Sequence record: NC_041919.1
Source of the DNA: Escherichia phage HP3
Strand: one strand, 5' to 3'
Length of the DNA stretch: 64,000 nt
The position numbers and the translations under genes were made by a program. Below, piece by piece: positions 21,613 through 31,373 of the stretch. Within the stretch, counting starts at the first letter, position 1. Every line of letters starts with the position of its first letter. Under the pieces are notes generated by a model. It saw only the letters and a list, made by a program, of their open reading frames with translations, did no database searches and was not told where the DNA came from.

Positions 21613-22297
<685 letters not shown>

Positions 22298-22310
22298 TTT
22301 CACAAAGTTG

Positions 22311-22339
22311 TTTACATACTGATGAGGTAGTGATACTAT
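22311..22339 (+). promoter_or_regulatory. Early promoter embedded in a stem-loop (PeSL-type)
   Basis: -35 tttaca, 17 nt spacer, -10 tactat; inverted repeat gatgaggta / tacctcatc (22321-22348) brackets the -10. Confidence 0.6.
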
Positions 22340-22370
22340 TACCTCATCAAAATTAATTAGGAAAATAAAA

Positions 22371-22628
22371 ATGAAAACTTTCAAAGAGTTTGCTACAAAA
22401 ACTACTATCACTGAATCTTCCCACGGTATGGAAGTAAAGCTTGGAATGGCTTTAGCTGAAGCTGAGCGTCTTTTCTCTCGTATTAAAGAACTTGCTGCTG
22501 CGGTCGATCCTTCATCTTTTAAAGGAGACCAAACTAAAGTTAAAGCACTTTTAGCATTATGCTCCGATGCAGGAGAAATTGCTAAAAATGGTTCTAAGAT
22601 GAAGAAACGATTAGAAGATTTAAAATAA
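22371..22628 (+). CDS. Internal protein (ipI-locus variant) with capsid-targeting sequence
   Basis: N-terminus MKTFKEFATKTTITE resembles T4 CTS MKTYQEFIAE with an L/I-x-E prohead-protease site; position after 57B as for T4 ipI. Confidence 0.55.
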   Translation: MKTFKEFATKTTITESSHGMEVKLGMALAEAERLFSRIKELAAAVDPSSFKGDQTKVKALLALCSDAGEIAKNGSKMKKRLEDLK

Positions 22629-22641
22629 TTTCACAAAGTTG

Positions 22642-22670
22642 TTTACATAGGGTTTTAGTTGTGATACTAT
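22642..22670 (+). promoter_or_regulatory. Early promoter embedded in a stem-loop (PeSL-type)
   Basis: -35 tttaca, 17 nt spacer, -10 tactat; flanking inverted repeat atagggt / accctat. Confidence 0.6.
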
Positions 22671-22704
22671 TACCCTATCAAAACAAAACCAAATGGAAAT
22701 CAAA

Positions 22705-22938
22705 ATGAAAACTTACCAAGAATTTATTGCTGAAACTGCTGATGTAAAAGTTGAGTTTATTTACATTGGCAAGAAAGATAAAATGGGTGAAATGCCTCAT
22801 GGAGTTCTTCGTGATGCATTAGATAATTTCGGTCAACTCGCCGCAGAAGATTACGGTGATAAAATTGTTGTTACTGGTCCTGCTGCAGTTATTGAAAAAT
22901 GGGCAGCAGAAAATAAATCAATTTTTCGTAAAAAATAA
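22705..22938 (+). CDS. Internal protein with canonical capsid-targeting sequence
   Basis: Starts MKTYQEFIAE (identical to the T4 CTS consensus); alternative ATG at 22693 adds MEIK. Confidence 0.55.
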   Translation: MKTYQEFIAETADVKVEFIYIGKKDKMGEMPHGVLRDALDNFGQLAAEDYGDKIVVTGPAAVIEKWAAENKSIFRKK

Positions 22939-22939
22939 G

Positions 22940-22968
22940 TTTACTTTTAGATAGGGTAGTGATACTAT
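22940..22968 (+). promoter_or_regulatory. Early promoter embedded in a stem-loop (PeSL-type)
   Basis: -35 tttact, 17 nt spacer, -10 tactat; inverted repeat agatagggta / taccctatct. Confidence 0.6.
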
Positions 22969-22996
22969 TACCCTATCTACTACTGAGGAGAATAAA

Positions 22997-23182
22997 ATGA
23001 AACGTTGTGAATTAATTCGAAATGTTGCTATTGCAATTTCTGCTTCCGCTTTTAGTTTTTCAATGTTTGTTGGATTTATATGTGGATTATTGACTACAGC
23101 AGAAAATGTGTTTTCACTTGTAGTAGCATTTTTAATTGGTTTAATTGCTATTGTTATGGATAAAATTTCTAAAGGTGAATAA
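22997..23182 (+). CDS. Small hydrophobic membrane protein
   Basis: 61 aa, mostly hydrophobic (VAIAISASAFSFSMFVGFICGLL...); SD gaggag upstream. Confidence 0.4.
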   Translation: MKRCELIRNVAIAISASAFSFSMFVGFICGLLTTAENVFSLVVAFLIGLIAIVMDKISKGE

Positions 23183-23580
23183 TGAACGTTGAATATTATG
23201 TATATGCGGATTACGAAAATAATCCGTCTAAAGATGAAGATAATCGTTTAGGTGTAGATGCTTTCGATTCCCCTGCGGCGGCATGGCAATGGGTTGAAAG
23301 AACCGATATTCCTTACCGTTATATTGAAGTGGTTGACCACGCAGGAAACAAGTATCCTAAGGAAGCATATGTTGCTTCCGGGAAGGTAAATTTCCTTTTG
23401 TTTGCAGGTGATAATTATTATCCCCGTGGTGGGTATACCGATTTAATTGCTAAAGCATTCTCTGAAGATGAACTCCGTGACATTATCAAAGAAAATGAAA
23501 ACAAACCGATGGATTCTAATCGCTTTGATTGGTGGCAAATCGTAAATGCTAATACTCACACTATTGTTGATGAAGGCTGA
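23182..23580 (+). CDS. Hypothetical protein
   Basis: 132 aa ORF, overlapping start/stop (taATGa) with the upstream gene. Confidence 0.45.
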   Translation: MNVEYYVYADYENNPSKDEDNRLGVDAFDSPAAAWQWVERTDIPYRYIEVVDHAGNKYPKEAYVASGKVNFLLFAGDNYYPRGGYTDLIAKAFSEDELRDIIKENENKPMDSNRFDWWQIVNANTHTIVDEG

Positions 23581-23582
23581 TA

Positions 23583-23870
23583 ATGATTCTTTATGCGAAA
23601 GTATCATCCATTGAAAATGGATATAAATATGATCAAGACGCGGCTAAAGCTTTGATTGATGATTATGGCATTTTAACATGTTTTGAAGTTGAAAAGGTTT
23701 ACATTGACCGTTCATCTTCTCAAGTTAAATTAGTGAAGGAAGAACGTAAATTTAATACAGTAAATTTTGATTTCTTTATTGAAACAGAAAAAGGTCCTCT
23801 TGAATATGATATTTTCAAGAATCCTTTGGGTCTTGAATGCATCGTAAATATGTATTATTATAAATGGTAA
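23583..23870 (+). CDS. Hypothetical protein
   Basis: 95 aa ORF, overlapping stop-start with the upstream gene. Confidence 0.45.
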   Translation: MILYAKVSSIENGYKYDQDAAKALIDDYGILTCFEVEKVYIDRSSSQVKLVKEERKFNTVNFDFFIETEKGPLEYDIFKNPLGLECIVNMYYYKW

Positions 23871-23967
23871 ATATGCTTTAAGAATTATTTGTTATTATTA
23901 ACTCATATCGCACTGATTAATACCCTCTATCATCAAGGGTTCTTGCTTAAGAGCCTTTGTTAATAAT

Positions 23968-24040
23968 TGGGAATTAGCCAAGTTGGTAAGGCACTGGATT
24001 TTGATTCCAGGATGCAAAGGTTCGAGTCCTTTATTCCCAG
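23968..24040 (+). tRNA. tRNA-Gln (anticodon UUG)
   Basis: Manual fold: acceptor tgggaat/attccca, anticodon stem ctgga/tccag, loop ttttgat, T-loop ttcgagt. Confidence 0.8.
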
Positions 24041-24041
24041 C

Positions 24042-24128
24042 GCGAGAATGGCCAAATTGGTAAAGGCACAGCACTTAAAATGCTGCGGAATGATTTCCTT
24101 GTGGGTTCGAGTCCCACTTCTCGCACCA
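24042..24128 (+). tRNA. tRNA-Leu (anticodon UAA), long variable arm, CCA encoded
   Basis: Acceptor gcgagaa/ttctcgc, anticodon loop cttaaaa, T-arm gtgggttcgagtcccac. Confidence 0.8.
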
Positions 24129-24133
24129 AATTT

Positions 24134-24207
<74 letters not shown>

Positions 24208-24217
24208 ATTTAATTTA

Positions 24218-24291
24218 CTCCGTGTAGCTCAGTTTGGTAGAGCGTCTGCTTTGGGAGCAGAATGTCGTAGGTTCAAATCCTGCCACGGAGA
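24218..24291 (+). tRNA. tRNA-Pro (anticodon UGG)
   Basis: Acceptor ctccgtg/cacggag, anticodon stem tctgc/gcaga, loop tttggga. Confidence 0.8.
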
Positions 24292-24293
24292 CT

Positions 24294-24383
24294 GGAGGCG
24301 TGGCAGAGTGGTTTAATGCACCGGTCTTGAAAACCGGCAGTCGCTCCGGCGACTCATAGGTTCAAATCCTATCGCCTCCGCCA
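24294..24383 (+). tRNA. tRNA-Ser (anticodon UGA), long variable arm, CCA encoded
   Basis: Acceptor ggaggcg/cgcctcc, anticodon stem ccggt/accgg, loop cttgaaa. Confidence 0.8.
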
Positions 24384-24388
24384 GTTTT

Positions 24389-24464
24389 GCTGATTTAGCT
24401 CAGTAGGTAGAGCAACTCACTTGTAATGAGAAGGTCGGCGGTTCGATTCCGTCAATCAGCACCA
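24389..24464 (+). tRNA. tRNA-Thr (anticodon UGU), CCA encoded
   Basis: Acceptor gctgatt/aatcagc, anticodon stem actca/tgaga, loop cttgtaa. Confidence 0.8.
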
Positions 24465-24465
24465 A

Positions 24466-24540
24466 GGCCCTGTAGCTGGAAGGTTCAAGCAAGCGACTCA
24501 TAATCGCCAGATGGTGGTTCAATTCCACCCAGGGCCACCA
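24466..24540 (+). tRNA. tRNA-Ile/Met (anticodon CAU; T4 reads this as Ile after modification), CCA encoded
   Basis: Acceptor ggccctg/cagggcc, anticodon loop ctcataa, T-arm ggtggttcaattccacc. Confidence 0.75.
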
Positions 24541-24549
24541 AATTAATTT

Positions 24550-24636
24550 GGGGAGTTATCCCGTAGAGGTAGCGGTGTGGACTGTAAATTCATTGTCATT
24601 GCGACTCGGGTGGTTCGACTCCACCACTCCCCACCA
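24550..24636 (+). tRNA. tRNA-Tyr (anticodon GUA), long variable arm, CCA encoded
   Basis: Acceptor ggggagt/actcccc, anticodon loop ctgtaaa, T-arm ggtggttcgactccacc; not one of the eight T4 tRNAs. Confidence 0.6.
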
Positions 24637-24640
24637 ATTT

Positions 24641-24715
24641 GGATGTGTAGCTCAATGGCAGAGCGATCGCCTGTTAAGCGATTGGTTATAGGTTCGAATC
24701 CTATCACGTCCGCCA
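24641..24715 (+). tRNA. tRNA-Asn (anticodon GUU), CCA encoded
   Basis: Acceptor ggatgtg/cacgtcc, anticodon stem atcgc/gcgat, loop ctgttaa. Confidence 0.7.
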
Positions 24716-24829
24716 AATTTGTGACAACTGTCACATTAATATCTACTTGACGCGATTATAGGGGTTGAACTGATCACTCTTCTCTTAATTTCGTGTGAAG
24801 ACATCTTGATTGTTGGAGTAGGTATTAAT

Positions 24830-24905
24830 GTGGCCGTAGTTCAGTTGGTAGAACTCGAGATTGTGATTCTCGTAGTCATGGGTTCGACTCCCATCGGTCA
24901 CCCCA
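24830..24905 (+). tRNA. tRNA-His (anticodon GUG) with extra 5-prime G, CCA encoded
   Basis: Acceptor gtggccg/cggtcac, anticodon stem cgaga/tctcg, loop ttgtgat. Confidence 0.7.
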
Positions 24906-24909
24906 ATTA

Positions 24910-24985
24910 CGGGGCATAGCTCAGAAGGAAGAGCAAGGACCTTCTAAGTCCTAGGTCGTAGGTTCGATCCCTACTGCCTCGACCA
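24910..24985 (+). tRNA. tRNA-Arg (anticodon UCU), CCA encoded
   Basis: Acceptor cggggca/tgcctcg, anticodon stem aggac/gtcct, loop cttctaa. Confidence 0.75.
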
Positions 24986-25003
24986 ATTATAAGTGAGGAA
25001 AAT

Positions 25004-25354
25004 ATGAAAGGTAATGTTTATTTAGTAGTTCATGATTTAACATTCTATTTTAATCATAATGATACTGTTATTTCTGAACGTGTAATTAATTTGCTTTATC
25101 AGCATGCAGATTATGTTTATGTCGAAAACGAATATGGTCATTGGCAATTTCTCAAAAATCGTTCATTTGGTTTAGATGGTTACAAATATTTTGATCGTAA
25201 AGACCTTTTAGATACAATTCCGTTATCTACACAATATCAAAATCATAAGTCTTTACATAAATGCCGGCTAATTCGAAATGCTGAATCCGCGTATGAAGCA
25301 ATTGATTTGTGGCGTAAACGCCGTGAATATATTGATTCTTTAAAAGAATATTAA
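25004..25354 (+). CDS. Hypothetical protein
   Basis: 116 aa ORF immediately after the tRNA cluster; SD gaggaaaat upstream. Confidence 0.5.
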   Translation: MKGNVYLVVHDLTFYFNHNDTVISERVINLLYQHADYVYVENEYGHWQFLKNRSFGLDGYKYFDRKDLLDTIPLSTQYQNHKSLHKCRLIRNAESAYEAIDLWRKRREYIDSLKEY

Positions 25355-25658
25355 GAAACCGGGTCGCTACCGGTAAGTCGTCGGACTGATGTTCCCTGGA
25401 GTATAGTTTCCTCCCACAGTTTTACTGTGTTCTGGCTCTTTACTATCACAGCAGAAACGGCGCACCGAATTATCGATTCGAGGAAATATCTTTGCCGTAA
25501 GCCGAGTAGCGTTTTTGACGGAACGTTCGGATATGGTCGAGATATGGCCTTTTAAAAATATTGAGTAGCGTCAACTACTTAATAACCGGGTTCGAATCCC
25601 GGCGTTTCGTACAAACACTTGCCTTAGCAGGTGGAACCCCGACAAGGTTGCCGCAAGG
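25355..25658 (+). ncRNA. Candidate structured stable RNA(s) with tRNA-like T-arm
   Basis: About 300 nt non-coding, GC-rich relative to surroundings; ccgggttcgaatcccgg is a canonical T-arm; repeated gagtagcgt; T4 encodes small stable RNAs next to its tRNAs. Confidence 0.35.
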
Positions 25659-25689
25659 CTTAGCCCCGACCGAAAGGTTGGGGCTTTTT
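25659..25689 (+). terminator. Intrinsic terminator hairpin, repeat copy 1
   Basis: cttagccccgaccgaaaggttggggcttttt: 10 bp stem, GAAA loop, T-run; identical copy at 26216-26246. Confidence 0.65.
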
Positions 25690-25691
25690 GG

Positions 25692-25699
25692 TATAAATA
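25692..25699 (+). promoter_or_regulatory. Late promoter TATAAATA upstream of the internal-protein-like gene
   Basis: tataaata about 38 nt upstream of the ATG at 25738. Confidence 0.45.
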
Positions 25700-25737
25700 T
25701 TAGTATATTAAATCTACAAATTAAAATAGGAAATAAG

Positions 25738-26211
25738 ATGAAATCATATACTCAATTTTTAAATGAAGCGGTGTTAAATGAAGCATCTAGCACCGAAATT
25801 CAAGCTGTTGCAAAAGCTGCCATTGCCGCGGGTAAATATTCCTATAAAGATGCTTCTGATGAATCGCGATTCCAGTTTGCACGCGACATGAAAGCGGAAG
25901 GATTTACGGGAAATGCAGTTAGTATGGCCTGGAAAAGTTTAGTTGCTACTGGCGCTGCTTTTGCAAAGGCTTCGGGTAAACCTGCTCCTAAAGCAGATCC
26001 TAAAGCGGCACAAGAAAAAAATATCGTTAAAGGAATTATCGCTAAATATGAAGCTATCCTTAAAGAGCTTTTAGTAATCAAAACCGAAGGCCAAAAGTTA
26101 GCCCGTGCTTATAGTTTCAAAGATAATCCACATGTTCACTCTCTTGAGTATGTTGAAGACATCCAAAAAATTATTAAAGACCGCATTTGGTCTGCTAAAC
26201 AAATCAAATGA
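25738..26211 (+). CDS. Internal-protein-like protein with CTS-like N-terminus
   Basis: 157 aa from ATG with SD aggaaataag; N-terminus MKSYTQFLNEA resembles the T4 CTS; the ORF-track start at 25561 lies in the structured RNA region. Confidence 0.5.
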   Translation: MKSYTQFLNEAVLNEASSTEIQAVAKAAIAAGKYSYKDASDESRFQFARDMKAEGFTGNAVSMAWKSLVATGAAFAKASGKPAPKADPKAAQEKNIVKGIIAKYEAILKELLVIKTEGQKLARAYSFKDNPHVHSLEYVEDIQKIIKDRIWSAKQIK

Positions 26212-26215
26212 CATT

Positions 26216-26246
26216 CTTAGCCCCGACCGAAAGGTTGGGGCTTTTT
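26216..26246 (+). terminator. Intrinsic terminator hairpin, repeat copy 2
   Basis: Identical 31 nt to 25659-25689, followed by a T-run. Confidence 0.65.
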
Positions 26247-26336
26247 AGTTTGAATCACTCGGATAACGCTGTTACGGATAGTAACAAAGTAATAAATAAT
26301 TAATAACCAACCGATAAATTATTTCAAGGATTTTAA

Positions 26337-26900
26337 ATGAAAACCTATGCCGAATTTTTAACCGAAGCAGCAAAATTACCATCTGAAGCAGATCTTACTA
26401 AAGTATTCTTCCAATTGGACCCAAAAGACCGCGGCGATTTTCTTAAGTGGAAAGCTAAAGCTATTGAAATGTACAACATCGATAATAGTTCTTTTACAAT
26501 GAGTCAAGAAAATAAATTCAATAAAGCATTTTTCAAAATTTCTAAGAAATTGGCATCTGGCGCTCAGGTTCCTAAATCTGTGTTAGCTACTCCTGAACGC
26601 GCACCTGTTAAAATTTCTAAGAATATGTTCGACACTAAAAAATACGTTAATGCTTTGAATAAAGCTCTTGATGCATTGGATGATGCAAAGAAGGCAGCCC
26701 GCGATCTTCAAGACGTGTACACCGATTTTGACCGCAAAACTAAAGGTTCTATTTCAAATAGCGAACGCAATAGTGTAAGTGTTTATTCTGATAGCCTTGA
26801 TGTTCTTGGCGATGCGTATACTGAAATTAAAAATCGTATTAACACTGCATCTAAGCTAAAAGCTGCTGCAGAAGCTATAATAAGTAAACTAGGTAAATAA
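26337..26900 (+). CDS. Internal-protein-like protein with CTS-like N-terminus
   Basis: 187 aa; N-terminus MKTYAEFLTEA; SD aaggatt upstream. Confidence 0.5.
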   Translation: MKTYAEFLTEAAKLPSEADLTKVFFQLDPKDRGDFLKWKAKAIEMYNIDNSSFTMSQENKFNKAFFKISKKLASGAQVPKSVLATPERAPVKISKNMFDTKKYVNALNKALDALDDAKKAARDLQDVYTDFDRKTKGSISNSERNSVSVYSDSLDVLGDAYTEIKNRINTASKLKAAAEAIISKLGK

Positions 26901-26906
26901 TTTTAA

Positions 26907-26933
26907 ATCCCTATCTAAATGATAGGGCTTTTT
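26907..26933 (+). terminator. Intrinsic terminator
   Basis: ccctatc / gataggg stem followed by cttttt. Confidence 0.55.
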
Positions 26934-27057
26934 GGTATCTAGGCCTTTCTGGACCTCTCTAGGCATCATTTAGTTTATACCCTTTATAATATATTATCCT
27001 ATCCTTTAATTGCCCATCCCTGCCCTAGAATTCCCTAAAAATTTTTTCACAAAACTG

Positions 27058-27494: not shown

Positions 27495-28088
27495 ATGAAC
27501 ACACTGAAGAAAATTGTTGAGTTTATTCGCACTAAACTTGGTTCTGCTATGGCTAAAAATCTATCTGTCGAAGAACAGTATACTGCTGCAGCAGCAAAAC
27601 TACTTGATAAAATTAAAGATCTAAAAACTGCTTCTGTTAAATCTATTAACGAAGAAAAACGTATTCGTGAACTTGTTATCGAAAAGAATCGACAGGCCGA
27701 ATCAAAAGAGCGTGAAATTCGTAAACTTCTTTCCGAAGGCCAAGATGTAACAATGCATGCTAAACTCGGTTTACTATATCGTCGAACAGCTGAGCAGTTG
27801 ACTACTAAGGCTGACGGTTATGCTGAAATGCGAATTGAAATCGCCAAGAAAGTAGTTGAGTTAGATGATGCTCGTCAAGAACTTGCGGTTAAATTGGAAT
27901 ATATCCGTGAAACTCGTGCAGCGAATGCCCTTGGAATTAGTACTGCTGATGATGTAGTTGAAATTGCAGCACTGACTAAGGTTGATATTGAAGATACTCT
28001 TGCTCGAGTTGAAACCTTTAATGGTAATATTTCTGGGGTTGAAACTACCTCTGCCGATGTTCAGGAATATATTAATTCTCTGAAATAA
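27495..28088 (+). CDS. Coiled-coil protein (PspA/IM30-like composition, tentative)
   Basis: 197 aa, N-terminal amphipathic helix, long E/K/R-rich helical segments. Confidence 0.45.
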
Positions 28089-30366: not shown

Positions 30367-30897
<531 letters not shown>

Positions 30898-30902
30898 AGT
30901 TG

Positions 30903-30931
30903 TTTACTTTCTCCTAGAATTGTGATAGTAT
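30903..30931 (+). promoter_or_regulatory. Early promoter with stem-loop over the -10
   Basis: -35 tttact, 17 nt spacer, -10 tagtat; inverted repeat tgtga / tcaca. Confidence 0.5.
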
Positions 30932-30956
30932 ATTCACAGTTACTTGGAGGGATAAA

Positions 30957-31373
30957 ATGACTCGTATTAATTTGACTTTAGTATCTGAACTTGCTGATCA
31001 ACATTTAATCGCAGAATACCGTGAATTGCCGCGTGTTTTTGGTATAGTTCGTAAGCATGTGGCAAACGGTAAGCGCGTTAAAGATTTTAAAATATCTTCT
31101 AAATTTATTTTAGGTTCTGGTCATGTTACTTTCTTTTACGATAAGTTAGAATTTTTGCGAAAGCGTCAATCGGACATTATAACGGAATGCTTAAAACGCG
31201 GGTTCAGTATAAAAGATACTGAAGTTCCTGACATCAGCGATATTCCAGTAGAATGGAAAAATGATTATAATCCATGCAAATCAGCTATTAAGTTGAGTCA
31301 ACAACGACTCGATGAAAAAATTTTAATGAAGCCACACTGGTATAAGTATTACGGCAAAAATATTTACATTTAA
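30957..31373 (+). CDS. denV: Endonuclease V (pyrimidine dimer DNA glycosylase)
   Basis: 138 aa; [17 protein letters not shown]...[11 protein letters not shown] matches recalled T4 DenV. Confidence 0.95.

Follow-up and report, generated by a model that had tools for sequence, protein, structure and literature searches.

What does a T4-like phage send into its host along with its genome, and from where in that genome does the cargo come? To our knowledge, no phage proteins other than the internal proteins (Ips) are in the cell at the moment when the DNA arrives, and as a class the Ips have an obvious use as a natural protein-delivery tag and bear on the host range of therapeutic phages. The question is raised here by Escherichia phage HP3 (NC_041919.1), and specifically by four short open reading frames (ORFs), called ipA, ipB, ipC and ipD below, that lie between positions 22371 and 26900 of the 64,000-nucleotide stretch analysed (hereafter the window) and that each open with a variant of the capsid-targeting sequence (CTS) of the T4 Ips. 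Our answer is that all four are quite probably T4-type Ip genes: a first pair, ipA and ipB, that corresponds to the named variants Ip5 and Ip6, and a second pair, ipC and ipD, that would be diverged paralogues of a single family, PHROG 2280, at a third locus. New here are that putative third, late-transcribed Ip locus, the conserved family that occupies it and a signal, in published transposon data, that makes ipD look essential.

Over 22300-27000 the sequence has 100% identity with Escherichia phage HP3.1 (OK275722), and the window belongs to Tequatrovirus; identity is at least 99.7% to about 20 further Tequatrovirus isolates, among them the BASEL phages Paracelsus (Bas36) and KarlGJung (Bas37). 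The sequences, homologies, synteny, repeats and motifs described below come from the present analysis, while the function of the CTS, the targets of IpI-III, the phenotype of the Ip6 orthologue and the transposon counts are taken from the papers cited.

Capsid-targeting leaders

A first-pass annotation, made from the letters of the window, had recognised four ORFs with a T4-type CTS and an (L/I)-x-E protease site, and this holds up well against chance: a six-frame scan of the 64 kb for MK[ST][FY]x[EQK]F returned exactly four matches, all on the plus strand, at 22371, 22705, 25738 and 26337, against a mean of 0.015 and a maximum of 1 in 200 dinucleotide-preserving shuffles. A much looser leader pattern, coupled to [LIV]xE followed by A, S, G or T, recovered the same four ORFs and no others. 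With the predicted cut written as a slash, the leader of ipA (22371..22628; 85 aa) is MKTFKEFATKTTITE/S, cleaved at ITE15/S to leave a predicted mature protein of 70 aa with an isoelectric point (pI) of 9.2; that of ipB (22705..22938; 77 aa) is MKTYQEFIAE/T, cleaved at IAE10/T to leave 67 aa. The leader of ipC (25738..26211; 157 aa), MKSYTQFLNE/AVLNE/A, has two predicted cuts, LNE10/A and LNE15/A, and a predicted mature form of about 142 aa (pI 9.6), and ipD (26337..26900; 187 aa) begins MKTYAEFLTE/A, with a cut at LTE10/A and a predicted mature form of 177 aa (pI 9.5, net charge +9). Predicted mature cargos would accordingly span 67-177 aa, and the range of 75-177 aa given at first pass needs correcting at its lower end. 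Applied to T4 IpI as a control (ITE19/A), the same cleavage rule leaves 76 residues, the published length of mature IPI* (PMC3012670), and the agreement lends sequence-level support to the predicted sites. Mullaney and Black found that in the IpIII CTS an aromatic residue at position 4 and Phe at position 7 are critical for targeting, and that positions 8 and 10 govern processing (PMC9026906); all four ORFs have the aromatic residue and the Phe, and ipB, ipC and ipD have I/L and E at positions 8 and 10.

Two of the starts had to be moved from those of the mechanical ORF list. For ipB, the ATG at 22705, which follows a GGAAA Shine-Dalgarno sequence and is the annotated start in all related records, replaces the one at 22693 (MEIKM...). 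For ipC, the start is taken as 25738 and not as TTG 25561, because 25352-25660 aligns to T4 rnaD/rnaC and is followed by an intrinsic terminator at 25662-25685. The TTG ORF, 25561-26211, spans rnaC, and its spurious part is what lies upstream of 25738.

If the four proteins behave as their T4 counterparts do, a CTS of 10-15 N-terminal residues would bind the assembling scaffold core, by which the protein would be enclosed in the prohead; the gp21 prohead protease would then cut after the Glu of (L/I)-x-E, and the small, mostly basic mature protein would stay with the packaged DNA until it is ejected into the next host cell. We infer packaging, cleavage and ejection of all four from their leaders.

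The first pair: Ip5 and Ip6

Whatever novelty the first-pass annotation may have suggested for ipA and ipB falls away on comparison, for half of the finding has been on record since 1994. The product of ipA has 100% identity to Bas37_0261 and to RB15 Ip5, deposited as Z35082 by Repoila et al., the authors of the 1994 work on T-even polymorphism, and it matches phrog_3499, 'internal head protein', at 1e-49. That of ipB, whose leader is identical to the CTS of T4 IpII and IpIII, shares 76 of its 77 residues with Bas37_0260 at the same gene position, matches phrog_8111 at 3e-52, and has a homologue that several depositors have annotated as ip6 or ipVI (fHoEco02, VR7, GiZh); the labels of the two PHROG families read internal head or internal virion protein. 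More than 30 Ip variants are known (PMC2839356), T-even Ips form a diverse set with the CTS as the sole common part (PMC3012670), and that the ipI locus varies in content has been textbook knowledge since 1994 (PMC3012670, PMC2839356).

Both genes sit in a recognised Ip locus, between 57B and trna.4, and are flanked there by early-promoter/stem-loop cassettes. The 71-nt element, composed of TTTCACAAAGTTGTTTACA, a stem-loop and a TG-extended TACTAT, occurs three times on the plus strand: upstream of ipA (22282..22352), between ipA and ipB (22613..22683), and upstream of the trna.4 homologue, where it closes the Ip1 locus (22911..22981). These copies form the direct-repeat family D2, with 86% and 63% identity to the reference copy, and the first has a promoter-like site with a -35-like TTTACA at 22311 and a TG-extended -10 TACTAT ending at 22339. 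ipA and T4 ipI have the same first seven codons and are preceded by an identical stretch of 120 nt. Such elements have been credited with shuffling Ip genes (Arbiol et al., PMC2839356), and with each gene of the pair behind its own copy, recombination between cassettes could swap one cargo gene for another.

For function, the cargos themselves offer few clues. The first-pass annotation had proposed a BLASTP comparison with known Ips, and the outcome is divided: ipA and ipB are recovered as Ip5 and Ip6, and against the characterised inhibitors IpI*, IpII and IpIII no cargo homology was found, BLASTP similarity being confined to the leader. Sequence searches of the PDB with the four proteins found no relatives, and none of them had an above-threshold match in Pfam or NCBIfam. 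Published phenotypes are more informative. IpI, IpII and IpIII each inhibit a different GmrSD enzyme, and ip4-10 had no reproducible target among 15 GmrSD groups (Silas et al. 2025, PMC12373910); Bas37_0260 is needed on mcrBC+ K-12, and its knockout is McrBC-sensitive (HIDEN-SEQ preprint, 10.1101/2025.11.20.689424). The Ips characterised to date (IpI, IpII, IpIII and Ip6) are thus all inhibitors of type IV restriction (PMC12373910; 10.1101/2025.11.20.689424). By proxy of its near-identical orthologue, the Ip6 of HP3 is likely to have an anti-restriction role and would neutralise the McrBC type IV restriction enzyme. The earlier suggestion that all four cargos are candidate injected anti-defence effectors is in this way upheld for ipB, and an anti-defence role for Ip5, ipC and ipD is still conjecture. 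Although the pair adds nothing new, the annotation of HP3, a phage developed for therapy, can now include a likely McrBC inhibitor.

A possible first phenotype for Ip5 is to be found in the HIDEN-SEQ supplementary tables, where insertions in its orthologue bas37_0261 are 4-fold depleted in the uropathogen CFT073 relative to K-12 (log2 fold change -2.09, adjusted p <1e-5); the adjacent 57B homologue has a log2 fold change of -1.56 in the same CFT073 versus K-12 table. The depletion of the Ip5 orthologue is left undiscussed by the authors (10.1101/2025.11.20.689424). For ipC there is no such hint, and ipD had no insertions on which a comparison could be made.

A putative third, late-transcribed locus

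Two Ip loci are described in the literature, 57B-trna.4 and e-denV, Ip genes being described as absent from the rest of T-even genomes (PMC2839356, PMC12373910). The second pair does not conform. As first noticed from the gene order, two CTS-tagged genes stand between the tRNAs and nudE, and their position can now be narrowed to the interval between rnaC and e.8.

The block that holds them can be followed from left to right along the plus strand. Homologues of rnaD and rnaC, identified by alignment to T4 and without a matching Rfam model, occupy 25352..25694; across their end runs the left copy of a 14-bp repeat, GGGCTTTTTGGTAT (25681-25694, found by repeat search), and directly after the rnaC terminator stands TATAAATA, the T4 late-promoter consensus (25692..25699), 46 nt upstream of the ipC start codon. 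Behind ipC comes a second copy of the rnaC-type terminator (26219..26242; repeat family D4, 93% identity), and then a late-promoter-like AATAAATA (26291..26298), again 46 nt upstream of a start codon, that of ipD; the same motif is found at that distance in locus L010. A terminator at 26909..26938, containing the right copy of GGGCTTTTTGGTAT at 26925-26938, follows ipD and forms the right end of the cassette. The match between T4 and the window runs as far as GGGGCTTTTTGGTAT at the rnaC terminator, where T4 goes over to the sequence that stands after the ipD terminator, a break and resumption which imply a 1,244-bp insertion in the window, 25695-26938, between the 14-bp direct repeats. The same site is also empty in T2.

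Neither the position nor the promoter is peculiar to HP3. A survey of IMG/VR anchored on e.8 showed, in 10 of 10 loci, an ORF with a leader directly in front of e.8 and after the tRNA/rnaC block; the ORF was of the ipC type, ipD, or a 205-aa type known from JS98-like phages. In Kosakonia 305, Marfa, PG7 and Pet-CM3-4 the 205-aa type stands directly after the tRNA genes and before homologues of e.8/e.6, and the position between the tRNA/rnaC block and e.8 is fixed in at least five phage genera. All 15 loci examined, drawn from several genera, have an xATAAATA motif 33-46 nt before the third-locus gene, a motif that neither ipA and ipB nor T4 ipI, ipII and ipIII have in front of them.

The second pair would thus be driven by late-promoter motifs placed directly after the rnaC terminator, in a unit that appears to have been duplicated in HP3, and the 1,244-bp block may be gained or lost by recombination across the repeated terminator junction, T4 and T2 representing the empty site. 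That emptiness in the two model phages is plausibly why the locus was overlooked. To judge from its motifs and synteny, the rnaC-e.8 site is probably a third, late-transcribed Ip locus that has gone unrecognised in the available literature; the accepted two-locus picture would then be incomplete, and the confinement of Ips to two loci is a feature of how those loci were described, not of the mechanism.

Probably one conserved family at the third site

Both ipC and ipD match phrog_2280 over their full length, at 2e-60 and 2e-53, as do a 205-aa protein of JS98 and a 177-aa protein of Klebsiella phage KP01 (1e-53 to 1e-60 for the four together). Leader-bearing members at the third site are present in hundreds of sequenced Tevenvirinae. 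The ipC type occurs in 510 phage records, where among those listed it is called hypothetical, bears some other generic label or is unannotated; ipD occurs in 163, 162 of them at 95% identity or more, and none of those listed names it, its entries too being hypothetical, generic or unannotated; the 205-aa type occurs in 139, from phages of Escherichia, Enterobacter, Klebsiella, Serratia, Kosakonia, Cronobacter and other hosts.

The relationship between ipC and ipD emerges through intermediates. A direct comparison detects no homology by BLASTP or hhalign, and it is a profile of the JS98 type that reaches both, with hhalign probabilities of 96.6% against ipD and 97.1% against ipC, falling to 84.5% and 90.7% once the leaders are cut off. 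An exhaustive hidden Markov model search yielded only 14 representatives among 1.84 billion proteins, two of which act as bridges: P0046, with 32% full-length identity to ipD (E 1e-13), and P0051, which is 42% identical to ipC (E 4e-37) and bears the HNLDTPDLY motif of the JS98 type. Predicted architecture agrees. AlphaFold2 models of both proteins have a disordered leader, an N-terminal domain of three to four helices, a disordered linker rich in Pro, Ala and Lys, and a long helical hairpin; in ipC (mean predicted local distance difference test score, pLDDT, 75) the sequence of the linker between helical N-domain and hairpin is PAPKADPKAAQEK. Foldseek searches with the ipC model against BFVD and the PDB returned its own orthologues and non-specific helical matches only. 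The full-length PHROG 2280 match and the shared order of leader, N-domain, Pro/Ala/Lys linker and hairpin hold for ipC and ipD alike, and their descent as diverged paralogues of one family is well supported by these comparisons, if not beyond doubt. The four cargos had been described as unrelated to one another, which survives for Ip5, for Ip6 and for the second pair as a whole, and gives way, through PHROG 2280, the JS98-type profile and the P0046/P0051 bridges, for ipC and ipD between themselves.

Is the leader a working part of these proteins? Leader DNA is common to otherwise unrelated genes (repeat families D7 and D8) and the evidence for packaging is not direct, so that one might take the leaders of ipC and ipD for recombination scars, or for portable translation-start modules on proteins that do their work in the producing cell without ever being packaged. 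We consider this very improbable. Across genera, in an alignment of the 205-aa type at 33-50% identity, the leader x-F-x-E-F-I/L is kept with its aromatic and Phe positions, [LI]xE followed by A or S is retained, and the E15-A16 pair, which never varies, directly precedes the conserved domain, at whose very edge the junction lies. A late promoter, furthermore, fits a virion protein, and ten CTS residues suffice to package foreign proteins in T4 (PMC9026906). The pattern of conservation argues that the leader of the second pair is under selection.

Insertion intolerance of ipD

One member of this family, ipD, stands out for an essential-like signal that is as yet unexplained. The HIDEN-SEQ preprint tabulates gene essentiality in Bas37, and there its orthologue bas37_0243, with insertions at 1 of 48 TA sites, is called Essential, a call on which the paper is silent; the sites hit in the same table number 29 of 34 for the ipC orthologue, 15 of 15 for Ip6 and 18 of 18 for Ip5, all seven genes downstream of the ipD orthologue are non-essential, and the assay also classes T4 ipI, ipII and ipIII as non-essential (10.1101/2025.11.20.689424). 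An artefact of the Cas13a selection was considered and rejected, as the CRISPR RNA targets the major capsid transcript, and a polar effect is unlikely given the tolerance of the seven downstream genes. Some caution is nevertheless in order. The T4 genes hoc and inh are classically dispensable. Both are called Essential in the same assay (10.1101/2025.11.20.689424), from which it follows that insertion intolerance is no proof of essentiality. Phage G29 (MK327940; positions 301-863 of locus L024) has an ipD identical to that of the window except for a 1-nt deletion at nt 151, outside any homopolymer, and annotated as two coding sequences; this frameshift weighs against absolute essentiality. In OE5505, ipD likewise aligns by tblastn in two pieces under two annotated coding sequences, and G4500 may be a further case.

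What, then, would the second pair do once packaged? It is possible, if rather doubtful, that ipC and ipD are basic, CTS-loaded head-core proteins that aid the organisation of scaffold and DNA, ipD having become necessary for head formation in phages that lack IpII and IpIII. HP3 has neither ipII nor ipIII, and T4 IpIII itself partly acts in this way, its mutants assembling heads at half the normal rate, giving about 40% of the normal burst and accumulating polyheads (PMC9026906). Mature ipD resembles IpIII* in bulk properties (177 aa, pI 9.54, net +9 versus 183 aa, pI 9.65, net +10), and the pI of about 9.5 of mature ipC and ipD is comparable to that of IpII* and IpIII*. The position and architecture of the family are conserved in at least five genera and not hypervariable, ipD scarcely differs between the records that carry it, the promoter is of the late kind only, as in structural genes, and both the single hit in bas37_0243 among insertion-tolerant neighbours and the dispensability of the T4 Ips in that assay are in keeping with it. 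Yet T4 and T2 are fully viable without the family, the ipC orthologue is dispensable, G29 was isolated as a viable phage in spite of its deletion, and the screen errs in the same direction with hoc and inh. Nor is the distribution complementary, for in ECML-134 a gene of IpIII length occurs alongside ipC and ipD, and the stricter notion that ipD is simply a replacement for IpIII was rejected on that ground.

A host-directed explanation would make ipD an injected counter-defence against some barrier intrinsic to K-12, one retained in the restriction-deleted host of the library; ipD would for that reason look essential in the screen and be dispensable on other hosts. Insertion intolerance was measured on K-12 derivatives only, the frameshifted allele of G29 suggests that ipD can be lost in some setting, and the precedent of IpI, IpII, IpIII and Ip6 is one of type IV restriction inhibitors throughout. 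Against it stand the lack of a known target, the growth of T4 and T2 on K-12 in spite of lacking the family, and the high conservation of ipD, unlike that of arms-race effectors, which are usually diversified. The deletion in G29, moreover, may reflect a mistake of assembly, or may leave a functional fragment through a downstream restart. As formulated, we hold this to be unlikely.

Cross-genus conservation, a late promoter and the intolerance of ipD speak for a head-core role roughly as much as for an effector role, and for the pair after packaging an injected, host-directed function and an IpIII-like contribution to core and head assembly appear about equally likely. As regards ipD itself, we lean slightly towards a host-dependent, conditionally essential role. 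A bolder proposal, which we advance only tentatively, is that the third locus houses an overlooked, capsid-loaded family in which ipD is needed on K-12 and losable elsewhere, either as an injected anti-barrier factor or as the first Ip-class protein required for head assembly.

Weighing the reading as a whole

Several observations count against the view that all four ORFs are Ip genes of the T4 type and that the second pair forms one family. Mature Ip6 is not basic (pI 6.5). Its codon 21 (22765-22767) encodes Ile, where Bas37_0260 and nearly all other records have Thr, and exact matches with Ile21 were confined to HP3.1 and HP3.2 among 244 records. The genes ipC and ipD lie between rnaC and e.8, behind terminator and late-promoter junctions and outside the recognised Ip loci, and they lack the early-promoter/stem-loop cassettes that flank classical Ip genes. 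Direct profile comparison of the two with their leaders removed gives nothing; their paralogy rests on intermediates and on shallow alignments (effective sequence number, Neff, 1-2), which is why it falls short of certain, and the AlphaFold2 model of ipD is poor (pLDDT 59). Lastly, neither virion proteomes nor N-terminal sequences of the four proteins were found in the literature for HP3, Bas36/37 or other carriers, including fPS-65 and fD1, and it is for this reason that packaging and cleavage are only inferred.

The Ile21 of Ip6 is a lineage trait. Directed evolution of HP3.1 was entertained as its source and rejected: two tail-fibre changes are all that separates HP3.1 from HP3.

Gene order and neighbouring features

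The order of genes in the window agrees with what had been read from it at first pass, namely that the ip genes are placed differently from those of T4 and that denV comes right after e. Around the four genes it runs gp2, gp3, gp1, 57A, 57B, ipA, ipB, homologues of trna.4/.3/.2, eleven tRNAs, a 116-aa ORF, rnaD/rnaC, ipC and ipD, e.8, e.6-e.2, nudE, e and denV. On the T4 map, ipI follows 57B, ipIII and ipII lie between e and denV, and the rnaC-e.8 interval is empty. In the window, the lysozyme gene e (30403-30897) is directly followed by denV (30957-31373), and the 59-nt spacer between them (30898..30956, plus strand), the empty IpII/IpIII locus, keeps one early-promoter/stem-loop cassette that is nearly identical to the one preceding T4 ipIII, which gives the impression that ip modules were cut out between a pair of these elements.

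Relatives vary at this same place. ECML-134 (L022) has two Ip genes after e, denV not being annotated in the stretch viewed, and pSs-1 (L023) has e, denV and then, downstream of denV, a 157-aa 'internal virion protein'. Some relatives have an Ip5-like paralogue, about 47% identical, beside the lysozyme gene (L009 7280, L007 8102). The leader of this paralogue, MKTYSEFLSESILNE/A, is in the style of the third locus, and an Ip5-like cargo behind such a leader indicates that leaders and cargos recombine between loci.

Between the two pairs lie eleven tRNA genes (23968-24985), compared with eight in T4. The one at 24466-24540, with anticodon CAT, is tRNA-Met according to ARAGORN and tRNA-Ile in the BASEL records, and T4 likewise has a tRNA-Ile adjoining tRNA-Thr. 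The 116-aa ORF (25004-25354; PHROG 3355), which stands between tRNA-Arg and the rnaD homologue, has no T4 counterpart at the site and occurs in T2, Bas36, Bas37 and DalCa. Beyond the second pair, 27495-28088 is the e.6 homologue, annotated in HP3.1 as 'host specificity protein'; insertions in its orthologue bas37_0240 are about 90-fold depleted in CFT073 relative to K-12 (log2 fold change -6.49, adjusted p <1e-5; HIDEN-SEQ supplementary table), a depletion that goes unmentioned in the main text of that paper.

Comparison with known systems

Like T4 IpI-III, the four predicted products combine an N-terminal CTS, which in ipB is that of IpII/IpIII and in ipA of the IpI type with its longer propeptide, with an (L/I)-x-E cleavage motif, and they are small and mostly basic when mature. 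The resemblance to T4 extends to the ipI slot, which ipA and ipB occupy behind the same upstream sequence. It ends at the cargos, which have no similarity to those of T4 beyond the leader, at the ipII/ipIII slot, which is empty in the window, and at ipC and ipD, which sit at a locus that is empty in T4, with late-promoter motifs instead of early-promoter/stem-loop cassettes.

The closer comparison for the first pair is with the variants Ip5-Ip13 of the T-even 'hyperplastic' loci, where there is likewise one cassette per gene and where ipA is Ip5 and ipB the annotated Ip6. HP3 differs from RB15, which has Ip5, Ip9, Ip7 and Ip8 in place of Ip5 and Ip6, and from T2, in which Ip5 is accompanied by a 102-aa internal head protein; ipC and ipD are absent from the named variants among the records listed. 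The nearest functional relative is Bas37_0260 of KarlGJung, at the same locus with the same neighbours and 76/77 identical to ipB, from which it departs in having Thr21 for Ile21. For the second pair the counterpart is PHROG 2280, which has full-length matches to ipC, ipD and the JS98 205-aa and Klebsiella KP01 177-aa proteins and carries no functional label; the CTS leader, the fixed locus and the late promoter, not found in the available literature, are the features that the present description adds to it.

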